Of a DNA stretch of 64,000 bases, positions 43,204 through 56,774 are shown in pieces. Position 1 is the first letter of the stretch, and each line of letters opens with the position of its first letter. A model generated the notes under the pieces. It was not told the DNA's origin and did no database searches. It saw only the letters and a program-made list of their open reading frames with translations. The translations under genes and the position numbers were made by a program. Origin of the DNA: an uncultured Actinomycetota bacterium. GTDB lineage: Bacteria > Actinomycetota > Actinomycetes > Propionibacteriales > Nocardioidaceae. The stretch lies in contig CAVWDJ010000002.1 in assembly GCA_963753705.1 (NCBI GenBank), forward strand, positions 437,195-501,194. The letters are read 5' to 3'.

Positions 43204-43285
43204 GGGCCGGGGGCGAGGCACGTCTCGACCGTCGCCCACGACGTGGGCCGGGGGCGAGGCACGTCTCGACCGTCGCCCACGACGT
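43204..43285. repeat. Exact 41-bp tandem duplication
   Basis: GGGCCGGGGGCGAGGCACGTCTCGACCGTCGCCCACGACGT at 43204 and 43245. Confidence 0.92.
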
Positions 43286-43326
43286 ACCCCGCTGGTGACC
43301 GCCGCTGGGTGTTCGTTCGCCTCGGT

Positions 43327-43410
43327 TTCATCATGTGATGCAGGCGAACCTCGGCTTCACACGGTGAGCTCGCCATGTGAAGCCGAGGTTCGACACCTTC
43401 ACATGGTGAA
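43327..43410. repeat. 84-bp palindromic intergenic element, copy 2
   Basis: Perfect 17-bp inner inverted repeat CGAACCTCGGCTTCACA (43345-43361) / TGTGAAGCCGAGGTTCG (43376-43392). Same length as 13947-14030, with related ends and core. Confidence 0.85.
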
Positions 43411-43433
43411 ACTGCTCACCCGAGCCGCACGAC

Positions 43434-43461
43434 CGAACCGAATCACCGGTTCTGTCGTATA
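43434..43461 (+). promoter_or_regulatory. SigL-type ECF promoter (autoregulatory candidate)
   Basis: CGAACC-N16-CGTATA, ending 18 nt before the sigma ATG. Confidence 0.7.
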
Positions 43462-43479: not shown

Positions 43480-43992
43480 ATGGCCGAGAGCCCCGACGTC
43501 GTGATGCAGCGTCTGCACGACGAGCATGCCGGCGCGCTCTGGGGCCATTGCCTGCGCCTGACCAACTACGACCGTGCCCGTGCCGAGGACGTCTGCCAGG
43601 AGACGCTGCTGCGCGCCTGGCGGAACGCGTCGCTGCTCGACGAGGGTCAGGGGTCGGTCCGGGCCTGGCTGTTCACGGTCGCCCGCAACATCGTGATCGA
43701 CGAGTCGCGCACCCGGCGCGCCCGCTCGGAGTTCCCCGTCGACGAGGTGCCCGAGCCGGGGACCGCCGACGACGGGAGCGACGAGCTGCTGATGACCTGG
43801 GTGGTCGCGGACGCGGTGACCCACCTGTCCGCGGAGCACCGTGCGGTGCTCCAGGAGTGCTACTTCAACGGCCGCTCGGTGGCCGAGGCCGCTCGCCGGC
43901 TCGGGATCCCCGAGGGGACCGTCAAGTCGCGGACCCACTACGCACTGCGCGCCCTCCGGCTGGCCCTCGAAGAGATGGGAGTGGTCTCATGA
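43480..43992 (+). CDS. ECF sigma factor, SigL-like
   Basis: LHDEHAGALW...AEDVCQETLLRAW...RAWLFTVARNIVIDE...GTVKSRTHYALRALRLAL resembles mycobacterial SigL. RBS GGAGGT. Confidence 0.85.
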   Translation: MAESPDVVMQRLHDEHAGALWGHCLRLTNYDRARAEDVCQETLLRAWRNASLLDEGQGSVRAWLFTVARNIVIDESRTRRARSEFPVDEVPEPGTADDGSDELLMTWVVADAVTHLSAEHRAVLQECYFNGRSVAEAARRLGIPEGTVKSRTHYALRALRLALEEMGVVS

Positions 43993-44672
43993 GCTGCTCC
44001 TACACGACCTGGGACGGCGCCTACGTCCTCGGCTCCCTCTCGTCGGCCGACCGTCGCGAGTTCGAGAGCCACCTGGCCGGCTGCCCCGAGTGCTCGCGCG
44101 CCGTGCGCGACCTGGCCGGCCTCCCGGGCCTGCTCGGCCGGCTCGACCCCGAGGTGTTCGAGGAGGGTGAGCCCGAGCCGGTCCCCGACACGCTGCTGCC
44201 GCGGCTCGTGGCTGCGATGCACCGCGGTCAGCGTCGTCGTACGTGGATGACCGCCGGGCTCGCCGCCGCGGCCGCCGTCGTGGTGACGGTGGGCGGAGTC
44301 GCCGTGCTCGACCGGAGCACGGGCGGCACCCCGACCGCCAGCCCGCCCAGCATCATCACCTCGAGCGCCCAGCCGATGACCCCGGTCGGCAACGACCCGA
44401 TGACGGCCAGCGTGTCGCTCACGTCGGTCGCATGGGGCACGCGGGTGGACATGACCTGCAGCTACCCGCAGTTCCACGGCGACTACGAGGGCGGGTCCTA
44501 CGCGCTGGTCGTGCACACCCTCCACGGTGGCACCGAGCGGATCGCGACCTGGAACGGTCTGCCGGGCAAGACCATGCACCTCACCGGCGCCACCGCCTCG
44601 CAGAAGGCACAGATCACGTCGGTCGACGTCACCCGCATCGACGGTGCGCCGGTGCTGCACCTCTCGCTCTGA
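43989..44672 (+). CDS. Zinc anti-sigma factor, RslA-like (ZAS, TM, extracytoplasmic domain)
   Basis: WDGAYVLGSLSSADRREFESHLAGCPEC (HxxxCxxC), TM, WGTRVDMTCSY. Confidence 0.88.
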   Translation: MSCSYTTWDGAYVLGSLSSADRREFESHLAGCPECSRAVRDLAGLPGLLGRLDPEVFEEGEPEPVPDTLLPRLVAAMHRGQRRRTWMTAGLAAAAAVVVTVGGVAVLDRSTGGTPTASPPSIITSSAQPMTPVGNDPMTASVSLTSVAWGTRVDMTCSYPQFHGDYEGGSYALVVHTLHGGTERIATWNGLPGKTMHLTGATASQKAQITSVDVTRIDGAPVLHLSL

Positions 44673-44884: not shown

Positions 44885-45271
44885 TCAGGAGGCCACGGCG
44901 GCGTGCTCACGCGCGGGGGCCGTACGACGCTCGTGGACGAGCAGGTACAGGCCACCGATGATCGCGACGGCCTCGGAGACCGCGGCGGTCCAGACGTAGG
45001 GGCCCTGCCACTTCTCGTGGTCGCCGAACAGCCCCCAGGTCGCGGCGATGACGAAGCCGCCCAGGGTCGAGGCACCGAAGCCGAACGCGAGGAACGGCGG
45101 CACCCAGTGCTGCCAGGTGACCAGCAGGATCGCGATCACGATGCCGGCCACCCCGTTGACGATGAAGAGCGGCCCGATCACGTGGACGTGACGGAAGCCG
45201 TCGAACCACTCCTTGAGGTGCACGTACGCCGAGACGAGGACGGCAGCAGCGGTGATCCAACGGACGGTCAT
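44885..45271 (-). CDS. Small 4-TM His-containing membrane protein, paralog A
   Basis: MTVRWITAAAVLVSAYVHLKEWFDGFRHVHVIGPLF...GDHEKWQGPYVW; RBS GGAGAG. Confidence 0.85.
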   Translation of the reverse strand: MTVRWITAAAVLVSAYVHLKEWFDGFRHVHVIGPLFIVNGVAGIVIAILLVTWQHWVPPFLAFGFGASTLGGFVIAATWGLFGDHEKWQGPYVWTAAVSEAVAIIGGLYLLVHERRTAPAREHAAVAS

Positions 45272-45313: not shown

Positions 45314-45341
45314 GACACGAGGAAGCGGCCGGATCGGTTCG
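45314..45341 (-). promoter_or_regulatory. SigL-type promoter for paralog A
   Basis: Minus strand CGAACC-N16-CGTGTC. Confidence 0.75.
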
Positions 45342-45342
45342 G

Positions 45343-47676
45343 TCAGGGGGCCGTGGAGCGCGAGCCGAACGCGGCGAGGAACCGGTCGCGGAACTCGTTC
45401 ATGGGCACCGTCGGCGTCGTGGTCGCCGGCTGCAGGCCGGGGGTCCAGCCCCACGACGAGATGTGGCGCAGGACGGCCGGGTCGTGGGCGATGAGCGAGA
45501 CGGGAACGTCGTGGGAGGCGCCGTAGCCGCTGACCGCGGCGTTGGGCTGGTGGTCGCCGAGGACGACCATGACGAGGTTCTTGTCGTGGGCGTGGTGGAC
45601 GAACGACACCAGCGACTGCAACGAGTAGCGGATGGACCGTGCGTACCGGGTCTGTTGGGCCCGGGGGTGGGCGAGCGTGGAGAGCAACGACGTGTCGTAG
45701 GGCACGCCGGCGCCGCGCACGCTGGTGTAGATCGTGCCGTCGCCGACGGCGTCCCACGGCACCAGCCGGGGCAGCGAGGTCCAGGGGGTGTGGCTCGAGT
45801 CGAGGTCGATCTCGGCCATCACCGGCCGGTGGTGCGGGCCCAGCTCGAGGTCGTCGAAGGCGTGCAGCGTGTACTGGTCGGGGACCCGGGCGTAGCCCAG
45901 GCGGGGGCCGGCGTACCCCACGTCGTACGAGCCGTACATCCGGTCGTAGTGGTAGAACCGCTGTCCCTCGGGCCAGGCGTGCCAGTTCGACGGGACGTCG
46001 TCGACCGTGCGCCAACCCGCCTTGCGGAAGGCCCAGGCGAGGGTGAGCCGGTCGGTGCCCAGCACCTGGTCGTAGCGCTGCTGGGAGTCGATCCACAGCC
46101 CGGACTGGAGCGTGGAGTGGGCGAGCCAGCTGATGCCGCCGAAGGTGGGCGAGCCCAGCCAGCCGCTGCGCGCCTGGAAGCCGAGACGTCCGAGGTGCGC
46201 GGTCGCCCCGGTCAGCGTGCGGTCGACCTGGGGCGCGAACCAGGAGTCCTCCACGGCGACGCGGCCGTAGCTCTCGACGAAGACCAGGAGGACGTCCTTG
46301 CCCCGGAGTCGGGTCAGCAGGTCGCGCCCGGGGGTGAGGGCATACGCGTCGTGGGTCACCGCCTGCTCGAAGACCGCTCGGTCGTGGAGCTCGGCGCGGA
46401 CCTGGTCGACCTGGCCGGCGACCAGGGACGCGGTGGGCGCGCCGGCGATCTGGACGCCGCTGACCTGGGCACCACCGACCCCGGCCACCAGCCAGACGAC
46501 GGCGAGCCCGGCGAGCACCCTGCTCCAGACCCGCGGTGCGCTCGTGACGGTACGACGGGTGCGCACGGCCGACCACACGCAGAGGGCCGCGCCCCCGAGC
46601 AGCAGCAGCACGATCGCGACGAGGACCACGACCTCGCCTGCGCGCCCCACCGAGGCGTGCAGCAGGTCGAGCCCGGAGCCGAGGTAGGACGGGTCGGTCA
46701 ACGGGTTGAACGGGCGGTCGAACGCCTCGTAGAAGCCGAGGTCGAGCACGGTCACGACCACGGCGACGGCCAGCAGGATCCCTCCGACGACCGCCACCGC
46801 GCGCCCCCAGGCGGGCGGCAGCACGAGCACGAGGAGCAGGAAGACCAGCAGCTCGACCGGGATCGCGAGCAGAGCGGCGGCCGTCAGCTGCTCCGGACGC
46901 TGCGGCACGACCAGGGCGAGCCAGACCAGCGCGAGGGCGGCGGCGTCGAGCGCCGGACGGACCAGCGGTGACTGGGGAACCTCGTGCTCGTGCCGGTGTC
47001 GCCGCAGGGTGGCCACCTGGCGTCCGAACGACTCCAGGAGCAGGAGCAGCGCCGCGGCCAGCAGAGCCTGGGCCCACACCGTCGGAAGGACCTCGGCCGC
47101 GGCGACGACGAGGACGATCCCCTGGACCGCTGCCACGACCTTGGCCCACGGACGCGGTCGCGCCGGCCCCCCGAGCCAGGGCCAGACGGCGGTCGCCAGG
47201 AGCAGGAGGTAACGGGCCAGGCCGATCAGCAGCACCCAGGCGCCGGCGACCGGCACGACGTAGAGGCTCAGGACGAGGATCAAGAAGGCGTCCGTCTCCA
47301 TGTCGAAGGCCGCACCCAGCTCGGTGACCGTGCCGCGGGCCCGGGCGAGGCGGCCGTCGACGAAGTCCAGGGCCAGGGCGACCGTGCTCAGGGCCACGAC
47401 CAGGGAGCGGGGCACCTCGCTGCTCCACGACTGCACGACGAGCACCGTGACCGCCACGACCAGGCCGGCACGGACCAGGGTCACGGCGTTGGCCGCCCCC
47501 AGGCGTGCCAGGCCCTCGCGGCGCAGGCCGCGTTCGAGGAACAGCCAGAGCGCGACCGTCAGGACCGCGCCGGTGACCAGCGCGGGCACGCCGAGTCCGA
47601 CCGTGACGTCGAGCACGACGAGCAGACCCGCGACGCTCGGCAGTACGGTCAGTGGACCGGCGTGAACCGTGCGCAC
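45343..47676 (-). CDS. CDP-alcohol phosphotransferase fused to a TM region and a sulfatase/alkaline-phosphatase-like domain
   Basis: DFVDGRLARARGTVTELGAAFDMETD (DGxxARxxxxxxxxGxxxDxxxD); then VLLVFVESYG, SPTFGGISWLAHST, SSHTPW, LGDHQP. GTG 47676 follows GGAGG. Confidence 0.85.
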   Translation of the reverse strand: MRTVHAGPLTVLPSVAGLLVVLDVTVGLGVPALVTGAVLTVALWLFLERGLRREGLARLGAANAVTLVRAGLVVAVTVLVVQSWSSEVPRSLVVALSTVALALDFVDGRLARARGTVTELGAAFDMETDAFLILVLSLYVVPVAGAWVLLIGLARYLLLLATAVWPWLGGPARPRPWAKVVAAVQGIVLVVAAAEVLPTVWAQALLAAALLLLLESFGRQVATLRRHRHEHEVPQSPLVRPALDAAALALVWLALVVPQRPEQLTAAALLAIPVELLVFLLLVLVLPPAWGRAVAVVGGILLAVAVVVTVLDLGFYEAFDRPFNPLTDPSYLGSGLDLLHASVGRAGEVVVLVAIVLLLLGGAALCVWSAVRTRRTVTSAPRVWSRVLAGLAVVWLVAGVGGAQVSGVQIAGAPTASLVAGQVDQVRAELHDRAVFEQAVTHDAYALTPGRDLLTRLRGKDVLLVFVESYGRVAVEDSWFAPQVDRTLTGATAHLGRLGFQARSGWLGSPTFGGISWLAHSTLQSGLWIDSQQRYDQVLGTDRLTLAWAFRKAGWRTVDDVPSNWHAWPEGQRFYHYDRMYGSYDVGYAGPRLGYARVPDQYTLHAFDDLELGPHHRPVMAEIDLDSSHTPWTSLPRLVPWDAVGDGTIYTSVRGAGVPYDTSLLSTLAHPRAQQTRYARSIRYSLQSLVSFVHHAHDKNLVMVVLGDHQPNAAVSGYGASHDVPVSLIAHDPAVLRHISSWGWTPGLQPATTTPTVPMNEFRDRFLAAFGSRSTAP

Positions 47677-47731
47677 CCTGCCTCCGTATGTCTGGATACC
47701 AGTCATACGACGACGGGCCGGCGTCGGTTCA
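47663..47731. promoter_or_regulatory. Two face-to-face (divergently transcribing) SigL-type promoters
   Basis: Plus strand TGAACC(47663)-N16-CGTATG(47685-47690). Minus strand TGAACC(47731-47726)-N16-CGTATG(47709-47704). Confidence 0.8.
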
Positions 47732-47759
47732 GGACCAGCCGGACGTGGAGGGAGCCGAC

Positions 47760-48755
47760 GTGTCACCAACGGCCCGCGCCTACTGGCTGTGCGCGCCCGG
47801 GTCCGGCGAGATCCGCACCGTGGACCTCCCGGACCCGGGACCGGGGGAGGTGCTCGTGCGCACGCTGGTCTCGGGGGTGAGCCGTGGCACAGAGGCACTG
47901 GTCTTCCGCGGCGGGGTCCCCGAGAGCCAGTACGCCGTGATGCGGGCGCCCTTCCAGGAGGGCGAGCTCCCCGGCCCGGTCAAGTACGGCTACCTCAACG
48001 TCGGTGTGGTCGAGGAGGGCCCCGTCGGGCTCCGTGGGCGCACCGTCTTCTGCCTCCACCCCCACCAGACGGCGTACGTCGTGCCGGCCGACGCGGTCGC
48101 CGTCGTCCCCGACGGCGTCCCGCCCCGACGCGCTGTGCTGGCCGGCACCGTCGAGACCGCGGTGAACGCGCTGTGGGACGCCGCGCCGCTGGTCGGTGAC
48201 CGCGTCGCCGTCGTCGGCGCCGGCATGGTCGGCTGCTGCGTGGCCCGGCTGCTCTCCGGCTTCCCCGGCGTCGACGTGACGTTGGTCGACACCGACGCCG
48301 GTCGCGAGCCGGTCGCGGCCGCGCTCGGCGTCGCCTTCGCCCTGCCGGGAGACGCCCCTGCCGACTGCGACCTGGTGGTCCACACGAGCGGCACCGCCGC
48401 CGGGCTGCAGCTCTCGCTCGACCTGCTCGGCGCCGACAGCACCGTCACCGACCTCAGCTGGTACGGCGACGCCCCGGTCGCCCTGTCGCTCGGCGGACGC
48501 TTCCACTCCGCGCGCCTGGGCATCCGTGCCAGCCAGGTGGGCGAGGTCGCGGCGGCGCGTCGCGGGCGACGCACGCGGGCCGACCGGCTGCGCCTCGCGC
48601 TGTCGCTGCTCGCCGACCCGGCGTACGACGCGCTGCTGACGGGGGAGTCGCCCTTCGCCGAGCTGCCCGGGCTGATGGCAGAGCTCGCCTCCGGCGCGGT
48701 TCCGGCGCTGTGCCACACGATCACCTACGACAGTGACGACGAGAGGGAGGCCTGA
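47760..48755 (+). CDS. MDR-family (alcohol-dehydrogenase-like) oxidoreductase
   Basis: [25 protein letters not shown] Rossmann motif. GTG 47760 after GGAGGG. Confidence 0.85.
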
Positions 48756-49153
48756 TGTTCGAGGTGACCGTACGCGACCACATGATGGTCGCGCACTCCC
48801 TGCGCGGCGAGGTCTTCGGCCCGGCCCGGGCGCTCCACGGCGCGACGTTCGTCGTCGACGCGGCGTTCGCCCGGGACGACGTCGACGCCGACGGCATCGT
48901 CCTCGACATCGGTCGCGCCACCGAGGCGCTGCACGCGATCCTCGCCGAGCTCACCTACCGCAACCTCGACGAGGTCGAGTCGCTCGCCGGGCTCAACACC
49001 ACCACCGAGGTGCTCGCGCGCGAGATCGCCGACCGGCTCGCTGCCCGTGTGCACGACGGCGCTCTCGGCGTCGCCGCCGGCGACCTGGCCCGGATCCGGG
49101 TCACCCTCCACGAGTCGCCCGTCGCCTGGGCGAGCTATGAGCGTGCCCCATGA
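48755..49153 (+). CDS. 6-pyruvoyl-tetrahydropterin synthase/QueD-fold protein (PTPS-IV-like)
   Basis: [27 protein letters not shown]...YRNLDE...NTTTEVLA...[13 protein letters not shown]. No CxxxHGH motif. Confidence 0.85.
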
Positions 49154-50241
49154 CCGTCCCCGCCCGCACGCTGCACGCCGTCCTGCCTGCCGGGATCGAC
49201 GATCCGGCCAGGCCCAGCGGCGGCAACGTCTACGACCGCCGGAGCCTCGACGGCCTGCGCACCCTCGGCTGGTCGGTCGTCGAGCACGAGGTCGGCGGCG
49301 ACTGGCCGCGCCCCGACCTGGCCGACCTGGCCCGCCTGTCGCTGCTGCTCGACGAGCTGCCCGACGGCGCCCTGCTGCTCGTCGACGGCCTCGTCGCCTC
49401 GGCGGCGGCCTCGGTCCTGCCGGCGGCGTCGACGCGGCTCCGGGTCGTGGTCCTGCTCCACCTGCCGCTCGGGCCGGGCGCGGCCGAGGAGACGGTGCTG
49501 GCCTCGGCGGCTGCGGTCGTCACGACGAGCGAGTGGGCCCGCACCCAGGTGCGCTCGTGGTACGGCCTCCGCCACGTGTACGCCGTGCGGCCCGGCACCG
49601 ACGCGGCGCCTCTCGCGTCGGGCACCGGGACCGGGGAGGCGCTCCTGTGCGTCGCGACCGTGCATCCCGGCAAGGGCCACGACCTCCTCCTGGAGGCCCT
49701 GGACCGACTGGGCGACCGCCCGTGGACGCTGGTCTGCGCCGGCTCGCTCGATGTCGACCCCGACCACGCCGCCGCCGTCCAGGCGCAGGTGTACGCCCGC
49801 CGATGGGAGCGCAGGGTGACCTTCACGGGCCCGCTGGTCGGCTCAGCACTCGAGGCGGCGTACGACCTGGCCGACGTGGTGGTGCTGCCGTCACGCGGCG
49901 AGAGCTTCGGGATGGTCGTGACCGAGGCGTTGGCCCACGGACTCCCGGTCGTCGCGACGCGGACGGGTGGTGTGCCCGAGGCCCTCGGACGTGCTCCGGG
50001 TGGCGCGCTTCCCGGGTTGCTCGTGGCTCCCGACGACCCCACAGCCCTGGCCGACGGTCTGGCGCGATGGCTCGACGAGCGGCACCTGCGCGACCGGCTC
50101 CGTCGCGCGGCCGCGCTGCGTCGACCGACCCTCTCGGGCTGGGACCACACGGCCGCAGACCTCGCCGACGTCCTGGCCGGCGTCGGCGGCAGGGTCGCCG
50201 CCGGTGGCCCTGCCCGGGCCGACGTCGGGAGCCGACGATGA
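49150..50241 (+). CDS. GT4 (GT-B) glycosyltransferase
   Basis: [45 protein letters not shown]. Confidence 0.9.
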
Positions 50242-51200
50242 GCCTGCCGACCGTGCCGCCGAGGGTCCGCTCGGCCTGGCCGTGGCTCCGCGTCGTCGGC
50301 GGGGTCGCCGTCCTGGCCGCACTGCTGTGGCAGTTCGGGACCGGCCCCTTCGCGGAGGCGTGGCACGTCACCACCTGGCCTGCGGTGCTCGGCGCGCTGG
50401 TCCTGACCGCCGCGTCCACCCTGACCTCGGCCTGGCGCTGGCGCACCGTCGCCCGGGCGTACGGCGTACCACTGACGCCTCGCGAGTCCCTCACCGCCTA
50501 CTACCGTTCGCAGTTCCTCAACGCCACCCTGCCCGGCGGCATCCTGGGCGACGCCCACCGCGCCGTGCGGCACGGTCGCGAGGTCGGCGACGTGACCTCA
50601 GGGGTCCGGGCGACGGTGTGGGAGCGCGTGTCCGGCCAGGTCGTCCAGCTCGCGCTGCTGCTCGTCGTCCTGACCACCCTCGCCTCCCCGATGCGACCCC
50701 TGGCGCCGCTCGCCGCGGGCGGCCTGCTCGTGGTGGCCGTCGCGGGCTGGCTGGTGCTCAGGCGGGGCGGGCGGACGGCAGGTGACCTCCGCGCCCTGGG
50801 CGCCCCGGGCACCCTGGTCCGCATCGCGGGCGCCTCGTGCGGCTCGTCCCTGGGTCATCTCGCCGTGTTCCTGCTGGCGGTGCGTGCCGTCGGCGTCGAC
50901 GCGCCGTGGACCGTGCTGGTCGCGACCGGGCTCGTGGTGATGGTCGGCTCGTCGATCCCGGTCAACGTCGCCGGATGGGGGCCGCGCGAGGGCCTCACCG
51001 CCTGGGCGTTCGGCCTGGCCGGCCTCGGGTCGGCCGCGGGCCTGACCGTCTCCGTGGTGTACGGCGTGCTGGCGGCCGTCGCGACCCTGCCCGGGGCCCT
51101 GGTGCTGGTCGCCGACGCCACGGCCCGACGAGGTCGTGCGACAGTGGAGGTCCCAGAACCCGTACCGGCCGGACAGCTGGAGGGAGTGCGCCGTGGCTGA
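50238..51200 (+). CDS. Lysylphosphatidylglycerol-synthase-TM / UPF0104 flippase-like membrane protein
   Basis: AWRWR, YYRSQFLNATLPGGILGDAHRA, ERVSG, PVNVAGWGPREG. Confidence 0.88.
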   Translation: MSLPTVPPRVRSAWPWLRVVGGVAVLAALLWQFGTGPFAEAWHVTTWPAVLGALVLTAASTLTSAWRWRTVARAYGVPLTPRESLTAYYRSQFLNATLPGGILGDAHRAVRHGREVGDVTSGVRATVWERVSGQVVQLALLLVVLTTLASPMRPLAPLAAGGLLVVAVAGWLVLRRGGRTAGDLRALGAPGTLVRIAGASCGSSLGHLAVFLLAVRAVGVDAPWTVLVATGLVVMVGSSIPVNVAGWGPREGLTAWAFGLAGLGSAAGLTVSVVYGVLAAVATLPGALVLVADATARRGRATVEVPEPVPAGQLEGVRRG

Positions 51201-51909
51201 GCGCCCCTACACCCTGCTGAGCTGCAGCATGTCGATCGACGGCTACATCGACGGCGCGTCCGAGAGCCGCCTGATGCTGTCCAACGAGCTCGACTTCGAG
51301 CGCGTCGACCGGGTCCGCGCCGGCGTCGACGCGATCCTGGTCGGGGCGACGACGGTGCGCAACGACAACCCGAGGCTGCTGGTGCGTGACCCCGCACGAC
51401 GCAGGCACCGCGTCCGGCGGGGCCTGCCGGAGAGCCCGACCAAGGTCACGGTCACCGAGCGTGGCCGCCTCGACCCGTCGTCACGCTTCTTCGCCGACGA
51501 CGGCGCCGACAAGCTGGTGTACGGCAGCAGCTGCGTGGTCGACCTGCTCGAGCGGCGGGTAGGCCACCTCACGGAGGTCGTCGACGGCGGCGAGCCGGTG
51601 CGGATGCGCGAGCTGGCCGAGGACCTGCACGGACGCGGCGTACGCCGGCTCATGGTCGAGGGCGGAGGCGCCGTCCACACGCAGTTCCTCGCCGACGACC
51701 TGGTCGACGAGCTCCAGCTCGTGGTGGCACCGTTCTTCGTCGGTGAGCCCGGGGCCCGTCGCTTCGTGGGCGAAGGGCACTTCCCCTGGCATCCCGGACG
51801 CCGGGCCCGACTGGCCGCGACCGAGCAGATCGGTGACGTGGTCCTGCTGCGCTACGCGCTCTCCGAGCGTTACGACGAGACGCCCGACTTGGCCCGCCCG
51901 GTCCGCTGA
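51193..51909 (+). CDS. RibD C-terminal-like pyrimidine reductase
   Basis: SCSMSIDGYID, DAILVGATTVRNDNPRL, RLMVEGGG, DLVDELQLVVAPFFVG. Confidence 0.88.
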   Translation: MAERPYTLLSCSMSIDGYIDGASESRLMLSNELDFERVDRVRAGVDAILVGATTVRNDNPRLLVRDPARRRHRVRRGLPESPTKVTVTERGRLDPSSRFFADDGADKLVYGSSCVVDLLERRVGHLTEVVDGGEPVRMRELAEDLHGRGVRRLMVEGGGAVHTQFLADDLVDELQLVVAPFFVGEPGARRFVGEGHFPWHPGRRARLAATEQIGDVVLLRYALSERYDETPDLARPVR

Positions 51910-52304
51910 GGGGTCTCGGCCCGACGACGGCCACCGCGCGGGCGGGGCGCAGCGGGCACCGGGTCCTCGAGCAGGATCGCCAGGGCGCCGGCGATCGCGA
52001 CGAGCTCGGCGATCGCGGCCGCCCAGACGTAGAAGCCCTCCCAGTGCTCGTGGGTGCCGTAGAGGCCGACCGTGGCGGCGAGCGTGAACGCGCCCAGCGT
52101 GCACACCCCGAAGCAGGCCGCGAGCACGGCGGGTGCCCAGTGCCGCCACCGGACGAGCAGGGCAGCGATGGCCAGCCCGCCCACGACGTTGACCAGGAAC
52201 GCGGGTCCGATCACGTGGACGTCCCGCATGCCCTGGAACCACAAGGTGAGGTGGATGGCCATCGAGGCGAGCACGGCTGCGGCCGTGATGTAGCGCAAGG
52301 TCAT
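51870..52304 (-). CDS. Small 4-TM His-containing membrane protein, paralog B
   Basis: 67/111 identical to paralog A in an ungapped hand alignment; ATG 52304. Confidence 0.85.
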   Translation of the reverse strand: MTLRYITAAAVLASMAIHLTLWFQGMRDVHVIGPAFLVNVVGGLAIAALLVRWRHWAPAVLAACFGVCTLGAFTLAATVGLYGTHEHWEGFYVWAAAIAELVAIAGALAILLEDPVPAAPRPRGGRRRAETPQRTGRAKSGVSS

Positions 52305-52375: not shown

Positions 52376-52675
52376 CGGTGTGCTCGCCAGATCATCCCCT
52401 GCCGAGGGGTGTCCGCGCTGGAGAATCGGAGACTCTCCCGCACGGGGCTGCGTCCATGGACGACACCCCGCTCAGCGCGGCCGAGCTCGCGCAACGCGTG
52501 GCTGTCGGGGACACGTCGCCTGCGGAGCGTCCTTGACGGGCGTCGACCGCGGGTTCTCCACGCGTTCCCCCGTCCATCTCCTCGTCCTCTCCATGGAAGC
52601 CCGAGAGGTCTCGGCGAGCCTGTGAGCGCTATCCAGGCCACGGGGGTCTGGTGTCAACCACACCAGGGAGTACAG

Positions 52676-53302
52676 ATGAGGATCAACCGACGAACGCTGG
52701 CCGCCACGGGCGCGGCGGCACTGGCGACCGGCGCGGCGGTCGTGGGGGCGACCCACGCCGACGCCGCGGCCCAGAAGAACGTCTTCGCCATGCACCGCTC
52801 GCCCGGCATCGTCGCGGCAGGCTGCCTGCCCCACGCCAAGGCGAGGGTGGTCGTGCAGAACCAGGGGCCCGTGGAGGTGATGAAGATCCACGCGTCGGGT
52901 CTGCCCAAGCACACCGACTTCGACCTGTTCGTCATCCAGGTGCCCAACGCTCCGTTCGGCATCGGTTGGTACCAGGGTGACCTGGAGACCAACAAGAAGG
53001 GGGAGGCCGACGGCACCTTCGTCGGTCGGTTCAGCCAGGAGACCTTCGCGGTCGCCCCGGGCACGGCCCCGGCGCCCTCGGTGCACGACGGACCCTTCCC
53101 CGACGCCACGACGAACCCGGCCTTCGGCCCGATCCACACGTTCCACCTCGGACTGTGGTTCAACTCGCCGCGGGCTGCGGGCAAGGCGGGCTGCCCGACG
53201 GCCGTGACGCCGTTCAACGGCGAGCACAATGCCGGAGTCCAGGCGCTCAACACCGCCGCGTTCCCCGACGCGAAGGGCCCGCTCGGTCGGCTGAAGCCCT
53301 GA
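52676..53302 (+). CDS. Secreted 208-aa hypothetical protein (possible Tat signal)
   Basis: MRINRRTLAA...ATHADA; aromatic beta-rich body with two Cys. RBS GGGAG; strong high-GC codon pattern. Confidence 0.8.
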   Translation: MRINRRTLAATGAAALATGAAVVGATHADAAAQKNVFAMHRSPGIVAAGCLPHAKARVVVQNQGPVEVMKIHASGLPKHTDFDLFVIQVPNAPFGIGWYQGDLETNKKGEADGTFVGRFSQETFAVAPGTAPAPSVHDGPFPDATTNPAFGPIHTFHLGLWFNSPRAAGKAGCPTAVTPFNGEHNAGVQALNTAAFPDAKGPLGRLKP

Positions 53303-55090: not shown

Positions 55091-56371
55091 TCAGCCGTGC
55101 GACCGCGCCTGTTCGGCCCGCCCGAGCAGGAGGGTCCGCTCGCCGCCGTTCGACGTCAGCCCGGCGGCCTCGATGAAGGCAGCCGCTGCCTCCTCGGACC
55201 GGCCCAGGCGCTCGAGCAGGTCTCCGCGGACGCTGGGCACCAGGTGGGAGCCGGCCAGTGCCGGGTCCGAGGCGACGGCGTCGAGGACGGCCAGGCCGGC
55301 CTCGGGCCCGGCGGCGCGGCCGTGGGCCACGGCACGATTGACCTCCACGACGGGGTTGTCGCCGACCTGGGCCAGCACGTCGTACCACCCGGCGATCGCG
55401 GCCCAGTCGGTCTCGCCGGCCGTCTGGGCCCGGGCATGGCAGGCGGCGATCTGCGCCTGGATCACGTAGGACCCGATGGGTCGGCCGGCCGCGCTCGCGG
55501 CCATGGCCCGGTCGAGGCTCGCGAGCCCGCGGCGGATCAGCAGGGCGTCCCACGTCGCGCGGTCCTGGTCGTCGAGCAGGACCGGCCGGCCCTCGTGGTC
55601 CGTACGGGCGTGCAGCCGCGAGGCGTGCAGCTCCATCAGGGCCAGGAGCCCGTGCACGTCGGGCTCGAGCGGGGCCAGGCCGGCCAGCATGCGAGCCAGC
55701 CGGATCGCCTCGACGCAGAGGTCGGGGCGCATCCAGTCGTCGCCGGACGTAGCGGCGTACCCCTCGTTGAAGATCAGGTAGAGCACGCCCATCACGTCGT
55801 CGAGCCGCTCCTCGCGCTCGCGGCCGACGGGCAGCTCGAAGGACTCACCGGCGAGCGCCTTCTTCGCGCGAGAGATGCGCTGGCCGACGGTGGCGTCCTT
55901 GGTCAGGAAGGCCCGCGCGATCTCGGGCACCGTGAGGCCGCCGACGAGGCGCAGAGTGAGCGCCGCGCGGCTCTCGGGGGACAGGGCGGGATGGCAGGTC
56001 AGGAAGATCAGGCGCAGCACGTCGTCGTCGATGTGGTCGACGAACGCATCGAGGTCGGGCATGTGCACCTCCTCCCGCTCCTGCAGGGCATGGCCGAGCT
56101 CCGCCGTACGGCGACGCAGGGTGTCGGCGCGCCGGAAGTGGTCGATGGCGCGCCGCTTCGCGGTCTGCATGAGCCAGGCCGCGGGGTTGTCGGGGACTCC
56201 CTCGCGGGGCCACTGCTGGAGGGCGGCGACGAGAGCGTCCTGGGCGAGGTCCTCGGCCAGGCCGAGGTCGCGAGTCATCCGGGTGAGGGCACCGACGAGC
56301 CGTGCGGACTCGTCGCGCCACACTCGCTGGATCGTGTCCTCGGTGGACTGGGTGGTCCCCGCCTCTCTCAC
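55091..56371 (-). CDS. ECF42-type sigma factor with C-terminal TPR-like extension
   Basis: AEDLAQDAL...WPREGVPDNPAAWL, DDVLRLIFLTCHPAL, LRLVGGL, LYLIFNEGY, YVIQAQIAACH, PVVEVNRAVA. Confidence 0.9.
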   Translation of the reverse strand: MREAGTTQSTEDTIQRVWRDESARLVGALTRMTRDLGLAEDLAQDALVAALQQWPREGVPDNPAAWLMQTAKRRAIDHFRRADTLRRRTAELGHALQEREEVHMPDLDAFVDHIDDDVLRLIFLTCHPALSPESRAALTLRLVGGLTVPEIARAFLTKDATVGQRISRAKKALAGESFELPVGREREERLDDVMGVLYLIFNEGYAATSGDDWMRPDLCVEAIRLARMLAGLAPLEPDVHGLLALMELHASRLHARTDHEGRPVLLDDQDRATWDALLIRRGLASLDRAMAASAAGRPIGSYVIQAQIAACHARAQTAGETDWAAIAGWYDVLAQVGDNPVVEVNRAVAHGRAAGPEAGLAVLDAVASDPALAGSHLVPSVRGDLLERLGRSEEAAAAFIEAAGLTSNGGERTLLLGRAEQARSHG

Positions 56372-56399
56372 ACGGTGAGACTAGGACCACCCGACGACG

Positions 56400-56774
56400 T
56401 CACGCTCCAGCCGGTCCCTCGTCGGGTTCGGAGATCCGGCGCATCTCGATGGCGCCCTCCCAGCCCGGCCAGTGCTGCAGGTGGAGATCGGCCATCGTCT
56501 GACCCTCGGCCCGGGCCTCCTCCTCGGTGTCGAAGGTGACGATGGCCCAGCCGCCGATGACCTCCTTGGCCTCGGCGTAGGGACCGTCGGTGACGGTCAC
56601 GGTGCCGCCGCGCACGCGCCACTCGACGGCCTCCTTCGCGCCGTACAGACCGCCGCCGTCGACGAACGAGCCGTTGGCGATGGCCTCGCCGACGTGCTCG
56701 CCCATGGCGTCCATGATCGCCTGGGGTGGGTCCGCCAGGGACTCGTTCATCTTGACGAAGCACAGGTAACGCAT
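56400..56774 (-). CDS. YciI/DGPF-family protein
   Basis: VTVTDGPYAEAKEVIGGW...IEMRRI, directly upstream of the ECF42 gene. Confidence 0.9.
   Translation of the reverse strand: MRYLCFVKMNESLADPPQAIMDAMGEHVGEAIANGSFVDGGGLYGAKEAVEWRVRGGTVTVTDGPYAEAKEVIGGWAIVTFDTEEEARAEGQTMADLHLQHWPGWEGAIEMRRISEPDEGPAGA

Follow-up and report, generated by a model that had tools for sequence, protein, structure and literature searches.

What do PTPS-IV proteins make? SCO6650 of Streptomyces coelicolor, a T-fold protein of this subfamily, has had a crystal structure yet no function for more than 15 years, and relatives occur in at least 594 species-level genomes. We addressed the question with a 64,000-nucleotide stretch of DNA (hereafter, the window) from an uncultured bacterium of the Nocardioidaceae (assembly GCA_963753705.1, contig CAVWDJ010000002.1, positions 437,195 to 501,194), which carries a PTPS-IV gene within a six-gene cluster at 45343-51909. 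In the literature, the cluster is known only as an orphan, from the structure of SCO6650, the enzymology of SCO6655 and the PTPS-IV label itself; a literature search returned no paper identifying the product of the PTPS-IV/SCO6648-6655 cluster. In general outline, we read the locus as the minimal core of this orphan pathway, placed under a dedicated extracytoplasmic function (ECF) sigma/anti-sigma pair of the SigL type, a reading for and against which we consider the balance to be about even. This copy adds to the record the minimal core, the fusion of two membrane enzymes, a specificity residue in the reductase, a correlation between a catalytic tyrosine and a creatininase-family protein, fold evidence for the flippase and the LtaS-like domain, and candidate control by a SigL-type sigma factor.

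A previous annotation made from the letters of the window alone (hereafter, the sequence-only reading) had proposed a coupled operon of dehydrogenase, PTPS, glycosyltransferase, UPF0104 and RibD_C genes, divergent from a gene for a CDP-alcohol phosphotransferase. With gene bounds refined by codon-position GC (GC3) profiles, lists of open reading frames (ORFs) and ribosome-binding sites (GC content, ∼70–77% across the profiled 40–56 kb of the window), all six genes were confirmed, five coupled genes on the plus strand facing one divergent fusion gene on the minus strand, and their families were upheld by Pfam and NCBIfam. The plus-strand run encodes an NAD-dependent dehydrogenase of the medium-chain dehydrogenase/reductase (MDR) type without the catalytic zinc cysteine (47760-48755; Rossmann-type Pfam matches and PDB profile), the PTPS-IV T-fold protein, an orthologue of SCO6650 (48755-49153; PF01242, 84 bits; 3D7J), a retaining glycosyltransferase of family 4 (GT4; 49150-50241; Glycos_transf_1, 105 bits), a stand-alone MprF-type flippase domain (UPF0104/LPG_synthase_TM; 50238-51200; Pfam and predicted fold), and a RibD_C reductase of the archaeal/fungal type (51193-51909; 135 bits, PDB matches and residue pattern), i.e., the Rib7 type that reduces DARP (2,5-diamino-6-ribosylamino-pyrimidinone 5′-phosphate). 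The divergent gene (45343-47676, minus strand) encodes a CDP-alcohol phosphotransferase fused to an LtaS-like domain (Pfam CDP-OH_P_transf and Sulfatase). Because stop and start codons overlap along the plus-strand run (TGATG, ATGA, ATGA, and GTGGCTGA), the translational coupling is real. PTPS was present in 13 of 24 sampled genomes of the genus, and 10 of the 11 regions fetched from relatives matched the window locus in all six genes and in their order; thus, with gene set and order recurring among relatives, the arrangement is far from chance.

Membership of the PTPS protein in the PTPS-IV subfamily of COG0720, lacking the cysteine motif of QueD, was likewise borne out. The protein matches the SCO6650 structure (PDB 3D7J) over its full length (residues 1-131, 174 bits, E 9.6e-51), and the published PTPS-IV signature, FGPAx...HGA with FGPAQ replacing CxxxHGH (PMC5445326), is present: the window protein reads FGPAR...LHGAT, its relatives FGPAQ. 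The 12-letter motif quoted in the sequence-only reading was also found in the protein, and none of the CxxxHGH, CxxxxxHGH, and ExxHGH motifs of canonical QueD/PTPS-II/PTPS-III was. Alignment of a profile built from the window protein and eight relatives to structures of PTPS (among them that of rat, 1B66) and QueD showed the catalytic cysteine exchanged for proline or alanine, HGH for HGA (the third zinc histidine being gone), and the Asp-His pair for Ser/Thr-Tyr, with the invariant glutamate near the C-terminus retained. The score against TIGR03367 lies below the cut-off (37.6 versus 89 bits). The SCO6650-SCO6655 region of S. coelicolor resembles the locus in its close, full-length PTPS homologue, and the MDR-PTPS-GT4-flippase core also occurs in Streptomyces-type loci (L079 and L110); the window copy differs in having no methyltransferase, GTP cyclohydrolase II (GCH II), or creatininase, in fusing the CDP-alcohol and LtaS-like enzymes, and in adjoining an ECF sigma/anti-sigma pair.

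Which of these genes belong to the pathway can be read from their distribution. The PTPS relatives counted above came from a scan of one genome per species; the 80 loci most similar to the window PTPS were analysed, and gene counts were taken on the 67 well-flanked loci from other species among those 80. MDR, PTPS, GT4, and UPF0104 genes were present in 67/67, RibD_C in 62/67, the CDP-OH transferase in 58/67 (not within 10 kb in nine), and the LtaS-like protein in 51/67 (not within 10 kb in 16). A methyltransferase dependent on S-adenosylmethionine occurred in 52/67 loci and GCH II, usually beside the reductase, in 42/67; a second methyltransferase (15/67), a creatininase-family protein (7/67), and Acyltransferase_3 (6/67) were less frequent. 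The window form, without methyltransferase, GCH II, and creatininase, is shared by 11 of the 67 loci, mostly from kin of Nocardioides. Since four genes are universal and the others variable, the "reduced form" perceived in the sequence-only reading is the conserved core, and the genes which that reading named as partners are accessories. Its notion of a shortened form of a more extensive conserved cluster thus agrees with the comparison of variants, and two of the partners it named, GCH II and the methyltransferase, do recur, whereas creatininase is not a regular partner but a rare accessory. The regular partners of PTPS-IV are MDR, GT4, UPF0104, and RibD_C. Since GCH II (PF00925) accompanies PTPS-IV in only part of the loci, its presence characterises the gene context and not the PTPS protein itself. 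In that the window copy defines the minimal gene set and shows methyltransferase, GCH II, and creatininase to be dispensable, fewer enzymes would have to be reconstituted.

Three further observations concern the variants. A single ORF spans GT4 and methyltransferase in two loci. In four loci (L020, L024, L025, and L030, from relatives G010, G031, G019, and G012, respectively), the cluster genes align in pieces and in different frames, which suggests assembly frameshifts or decaying copies. The genome from which the window derives also encodes, at C2:269813-270895, ∼167 kb from the window, an Acyltransferase_3 protein 53% identical to one found inside PTPS-IV clusters of the Solirubrobacterales type; it could act in trans.

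If GCH II is dispensable within the cluster, the precursor has to come from elsewhere. The sequence-only reading had noted the absence of GCH II, creatininase, and methyltransferase from the window and had supposed precursor supply in trans; both statements hold for the whole genome (4.38 Mb, with named close homologues indicating Nocardioides; all absences reported here rest on an assembly that is 96.4% complete, with 4.85% contamination). The single GCH II of the genome is the housekeeping RibBA fusion, encoded beside RibD in the riboflavin operon on contig 17, and neither a creatininase nor a homologue of the cluster methyltransferase was found in the assembly. The in-cluster GCH II variants of other loci bear on what this precursor may be. 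The catalytic tyrosine (in the K-L-x-A-Y-x-L-Q-D segment) is kept in 38 of 39 loci in which no creatininase was seen, the exception being a truncated contig, and in all six loci with both creatininase and GCH II the position is occupied by Met, His, Gln, or Leu. In the GCH II variant SCO6655, a Tyr-to-Met change reportedly halts the reaction at FAPy, the formylated intermediate, a result ascribed to work by Spoonamore and colleagues from 2006. FAPy is deformylated in archaea by ArfB, an enzyme of the creatininase family, and the NCBIfam ArfB model weakly matches the cluster creatininase. Judged by these residues, the co-occurrence of creatininase with non-Tyr GCH II fits a deformylase that rescues an FAPy-forming variant. 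The three kinds of locus, with Tyr-type GCH II alone, with non-Tyr GCH II plus deformylase, or, like the window, with no in-cluster GCH II, would then converge on DARP.

The reductase points to the same compound. Its nearest structures are the archaeal/fungal DARP reductases 5XV5 and 6P8C (E 1e-27 to 1e-24), compared with E 1e-7 for RibD (2B3Z). In yeast RIB7, it is Thr35, where bacterial RibD/RibG have lysine, that makes the enzyme prefer the non-deaminated substrate, as addressed by the ScRIB7 T35K experiment (PMC3631187). Serine occupies the Lys151/152 specificity position in 54/54 cluster reductases aligned, whereas the RibD of the same genome has lysine; the catalytic Asp and Glu are invariant in the same 54 proteins. 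Because serine replaces the substrate-selecting lysine, the cluster reductase is predicted to act on non-deaminated DARP. It is thus like Rib7 in its best PDB and NCBIfam matches, in the small residue standing for the bacterial lysine, and in the conserved Asp and Glu; it differs in scoring below the equivalog cut-off of TIGR01508 (130.9 versus 186.45 bits), in occurring as an additional paralogue in a genome that has an ordinary bacterial RibD, and in that no deaminase follows in the cluster. Taken together, the Ser-for-Lys exchange and the joint occurrence of creatininase and non-Tyr GCH II appear to narrow the entry substrate to DARP.

For the dehydrogenase, only Rossmann-type Pfam matches were obtained, and its profile fits the polyol/threonine-dehydrogenase branch of MDR proteins in the PDB. 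The Rossmann motif reads GAGMVG (GxGxxG), the position of the zinc cysteine reads Ser-Arg in the alignment to RspB, and GHE reads GYL (read by eye); matches to models are weak and only to BchC and TDH. The protein is of the BchC-like/polyol-dehydrogenase branch and does not have the ligands of a zinc-dependent MDR. The closest solved relatives of the GT4 are MshA, sucrose-phosphate synthase, and BshA, all matched on the donor domain only.

The sequence-only reading had further supposed that the product is lipid-linked and exported, and this part gained support from the membrane proteins, although the product itself can only be proposed. Direct PDB sequence searches with the UPF0104 and the fusion protein gave nothing useful, and profile and fold searches were needed. 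UPF0104 scores 107 bits against PF03706 (cut-off, 33.4), and its AlphaFold2 model (pLDDT 90, pTM 0.85) has four significant fold matches in the PDB, all of them MprF structures (TM-score 0.62–0.67; next match, ≤0.2). MprF flips a phospholipid bearing a modified head group. In both fold and Pfam family, UPF0104 matches only the membrane (flippase) domain of MprF; it differs in having no aminoacyl-phosphatidylglycerol synthase domain, so the head group would come from unrelated enzymes. The fusion protein (AlphaFold2 model, pLDDT 85) comprises a CDP-alcohol phosphotransferase (approximately residues 1-230) modelled as a helical membrane domain, a five-helix membrane anchor, and an extracytoplasmic LtaS-like domain (∼460-777). 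The first part matches PF01066 (47.7 bits) and has an intact DxxDGxxAR...GxxxDxxxD motif that aligns to choline/serine phosphotransferase structures. For the last part, Foldseek ranked LtaP/LtaS at the top (E 6e-8 to 8e-6), followed by MCR-1 and PbgA, and sequence similarity to LtaS/EptA-type enzymes is marginal (E 0.014). Residues E468, S516, H629, D708, and H709 do not vary among 29 homologues; they lie where metal ligands and a nucleophile would be expected and are candidates for these roles. Because no formylglycine motif (C/S-x-P-x-R) is among the conserved residues, the domain is not a sulfatase, the Pfam Sulfatase match (25.2 bits) being just above its threshold of 25.

LtaS/LtaP and EptA/MCR-1 transfer the phospho-head group of a phospholipid to outside acceptors. 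The LtaS-like domain shares with them the multi-helix anchor and the extracytoplasmic alkaline-phosphatase fold, and has conserved acidic and histidine residues where a metal site would be expected, but is fused to a CDP-alcohol phosphotransferase and has serine, not threonine, as the likely nucleophile. In Micromonospora, the two enzymes are encoded by separate, adjacent genes. By analogy with phosphatidylinositol mannoside synthesis by PIP/PGP synthase and PimA, a CDP-alcohol phosphotransferase that could take a polyol phosphate would, together with a GT4, yield a glycosylated phospholipid head group; the polyol would here be a ribityl-aminopyrimidine or a pterin side chain instead of inositol, and no membership in that route is claimed.

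What might switch the cluster on? The present analysis, unlike the sequence-only reading, linked it to an adjoining ECF pair. The sigma factor (43480-43992, plus strand) has Sigma70_r2 and Sigma70_r4 domains and scores 228 bits (cut-off, 202) against NF007227/PRK09645, which we take to be the SigL model. The start of the anti-sigma gene (43989-44672, plus strand) overlaps the sigma stop codon, and its product, a membrane-spanning zinc-binding anti-sigma (ZAS) protein, has a zf-HC2 domain, an HxxxCxxC motif (HLAGCPEC), and one transmembrane segment. Within the genus, orthologues of the sigma factor with at least 64% identity were present in 10 of the 13 genomes that carry the cluster and in none of the 11 that lack it. 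The strict motif GAACC-N16-CGT(A/G)T, in which the −35-like GAACC is comparable to the −35 element of mycobacterial SigL, matches five times in the window (0.14 expected) and 22 times in the genome, the five at this locus included. Four of the matches lie directly before gene starts at the locus: 20 nucleotides before the sigma start codon (43435-43460, plus strand; GAACC-N16-CGTAT), which suggests autoregulation; before the gene for a small membrane protein (45315-45340, minus strand; GAACC-N16-CGTGT); before the MDR operon (47664-47689, plus strand); and before the fusion gene (47705-47730, minus strand). The latter two, both strict matches to this ECF-type promoter-like pattern, face each other, with predicted start sites that nearly coincide, and both motifs recur as a pair in ∼45 of 75 loci spread over several genera, among them Nocardioides, Micromonospora, and Marmoricola. 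No sigma-70-type promoters were found in the region. A loose pattern, GAAC[CGT]-N15-17-CGT, was discarded as too noisy (26 matches versus ∼15 expected).

In mycobacteria, SigL prefers C-G followed by the −10 element T-G-N-C/A-A-G (PMC6372665). The −10 region in the window is similar, not identical, in that it starts with CGT and reads CGTAT, not CGTG. The pair resembles SigL-RslA of Mycobacterium tuberculosis in that the sigma factor belongs, above the cut-off, to the same NCBIfam subfamily and the anti-sigma is membrane-bound and carries HxxxCxxC. It differs in the genes regulated: the mycobacterial SigL regulon holds pks and membrane-protein genes, and here the PTPS-IV cluster would be controlled. 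From its position and these motifs, the adjoining sigma factor is a candidate switch for both arms of the cluster, and the ZAS anti-sigma would, we infer, respond to envelope or thiol-oxidative stress as the inducing signal. Manipulating sigma and anti-sigma should allow both arms to be switched on, which would make lipidomics of induced versus deleted strains feasible.

Several other features touch on this sigma factor. Elsewhere in the genome, strict GAACC-N16-CGTRT matches lie just before what appear to be the starts of membrane-protein genes at C12:199475 and C3:1421 (both on the minus strand), possible members of the regulon. At C24:80238-81291, the motif and the sigma N-terminus occur a second time, 98–99% identical and then diverging, followed by an anti-sigma that is 71% identical; this copy is either an assembly or strain duplicate, given the contamination of the assembly, or a recent paralogue. 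A palindrome with 44-nucleotide arms, 84% complementary and without a loop (43325-43412), ends 23 nucleotides before the promoter-like motif of the sigma gene and could be a terminator or an operator. Further upstream, a perfect 41-nucleotide tandem duplication (43204-43285) follows directly on the stop codon of an ABC-transporter gene.

From these parts, the following pathway can be sketched. Housekeeping RibBA would make DARP from GTP, and the Rib7-type reductase would divert DARP, before its deamination, to 2,5-diamino-6-ribitylamino-pyrimidinone 5′-phosphate, keeping the 2-amino-4-oxo face. Since the 2-amino group would be kept, the compound would be pterin-like rather than flavin-like. 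The zinc-less MDR and the PTPS-IV protein, devoid of the catalytic triad, may then remodel this polyol-phosphate heterocycle; conceivably, the hydroxyl next to the ribitylamine is oxidised to give an aminoketone, which could cyclise with the 5-amino group to give a dihydroneopterin-phosphate-like pterin, the kind of ligand that T-fold proteins bind. The GT4 would add a sugar, the CDP-alcohol phosphotransferase might join the compound to a lipid by a phosphodiester, as PGP/PIP synthases do with polyol phosphates, and the MprF-like flippase would move the new lipid to the outer leaflet, where the LtaS-like domain might hand the phospho-head group over to an acceptor in the envelope or process it otherwise. 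The product would then represent a membrane lipid class not described before, i.e., a phospholipid with a glycosylated, GTP-derived 2-amino-4-oxo head group (ribityl-diaminopyrimidine or pterin), flipped by the MprF-like protein, handed on by the LtaS-like enzyme, and made under a redox- or envelope-sensing SigL-type sigma factor, and PTPS-IV would be a T-fold enzyme with new chemistry. We advance this more specific proposal tentatively, as one that falls clearly short of an even chance. If true, a pterin-like glycophospholipid would represent a novel type of envelope constituent, and its synthesis a new branch point off riboflavin biosynthesis.

A number of points weigh against this interpretation, at the level of the enzymes and at that of the comparisons. 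PTPS-IV has none of the known catalytic residues of PTPS or QueD, and the MDR protein lacks the zinc cysteine, so that the chemistry ascribed to them is a guess. The relatives of the RibD_C protein include the DHFR-like Rv2671 (4XRB), which leaves room for a role as pterin reductase. The resemblance of the GT4 to MshA, confined to the donor domain, gives no indication of the acceptor; the use of a heterocycle by the CDP-alcohol enzyme is argued from analogy; and the fold scores of the LtaS-like domain are moderate (TM-score ∼0.5 on target), its candidate nucleophile being serine where LtaS has threonine. The 80 loci compared are dominated by two genera, so the counts are not independent. As to regulation, the promoter pattern was defined after the sites had been seen, the related genomes in which it was followed do not count as independent, and the spacer of the plus-strand motif at 47664-47689 contains the reverse complement of the ribosome-binding site and GTG start codon of the divergent gene, which explains part of that motif's conservation; the motif does persist in loci of Micromonospora from which the divergent gene is absent at this place.

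Among the alternatives, a free product survives best. The soluble enzymes would then make a glycosylated pterin or pyrimidine small molecule (cofactor, pigment, or protectant) exported by UPF0104, and the CDP-alcohol/LtaS-like gene would be merely co-regulated, serving an independent modification of the envelope, for instance with a new phospholipid or a polymer resembling lipoteichoic acid. Cyanobacteria and Chlorobium are known to produce pterin glycosides by means of GT-B glycosyltransferases, and the nearest solved relatives of the GT4 act on soluble acceptors. The loci in which the CDP-OH or the LtaS-like gene is not found within 10 kb (nine and 16 of 67, as given above) would also be accommodated, but the membrane genes otherwise stay with the cluster across classes, despite varied positions and orientations, and carry the same promoter-like motif. 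Export of a soluble compound is, moreover, at odds with UPF0104 having MprF lipid flippases as its only fold relatives. We therefore regard a free small molecule as unlikely.

The pathway could also start from a compound other than DARP, namely, dihydroneopterin triphosphate provided by GTP cyclohydrolase I (GCH I) and bound by PTPS-IV, with RibD_C acting as a pterin reductase like Rv2671. That substrate is the one on which PTPS-family proteins normally act, and the genome does have additional GCH I matches (C4:249996-250649, minus strand, and C5:10120-10311) besides the copy in the folate operon on C13. It is, however, GCH II and not GCH I that joins the cluster, usually beside the reductase, and the second GCH I gene lies away from it. 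The reductase keeps the Asp, Glu, and Ser pattern of the Rib7 type, and the pairing of creatininase with non-Tyr GCH II makes sense only for a route through FAPy and DARP. An origin from GCH I thus appears distinctly improbable. The gene following the C4 copy encodes a 392-aa protein that looks, by eye, like an FAD-dependent reductase (N-terminal GGGxxG).

That the genes instead serve separate known pathways, with PTPS substituting for QueD or FolB, the reductase for RibD, or the set acting in F420 synthesis, as the name 6-carboxytetrahydropterin synthase in NCBI-style annotation and a review that, citing unpublished work, assigns PTPS-IV a part in F420 synthesis (PMC5041015) would suggest, is highly improbable, because no QueC was found in the assembly, so no QueD is needed, FolB is present, so no substitute is needed, the riboflavin operon encodes a full, normal RibD with the specificity lysine, and the cluster PTPS is devoid of the QueD/PTPS catalytic residues. 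The sequence-only reading had named separate known pathways as the case that would overturn it, and this case failed. For this genus, a link to F420 was rejected, as all 24 genomes have the F420 ligase, the 11 without the cluster included. DARP as the source of a lipid-linked head group remains the reading that we prefer.

The cluster is flanked by two paralogous genes for small multi-pass membrane proteins that contain conserved histidines and match no family. The first, at 44885-45271 (minus strand), encodes a multi-pass protein of 128 aa; the 3′ end of the second, at 51870-52304 (minus strand), overlaps the 3′ end of the RibD_C gene. They recur in Nocardioides-type loci, eight of which have a small membrane protein beside the cluster. 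No riboswitch or other RNA family was detected by Rfam within 42.5–53.5 kb, and PADLOC returned no defence-system match; a Pfam cross-match to GT4-conflict was accordingly put down to mere GT4 similarity. Downstream, a gene at 52676-53302 (plus strand) encodes a secreted protein of ∼208 aa with the signal peptide MRINRRTLAATGAAALATGAAVVG and no family match. The fifth strict promoter-like match (53136-53161) lies antisense inside this gene and is probably due to chance, and the ORF at 52654-53253, also antisense to it, was dismissed on codon-position GC as an artefact of high GC content. Finally, a second ECF sigma factor, with a DUF6596 C-terminal extension, is encoded at 55091-56774 (minus strand) beside a gene for a YCII-domain protein, apparently unrelated to the cluster.

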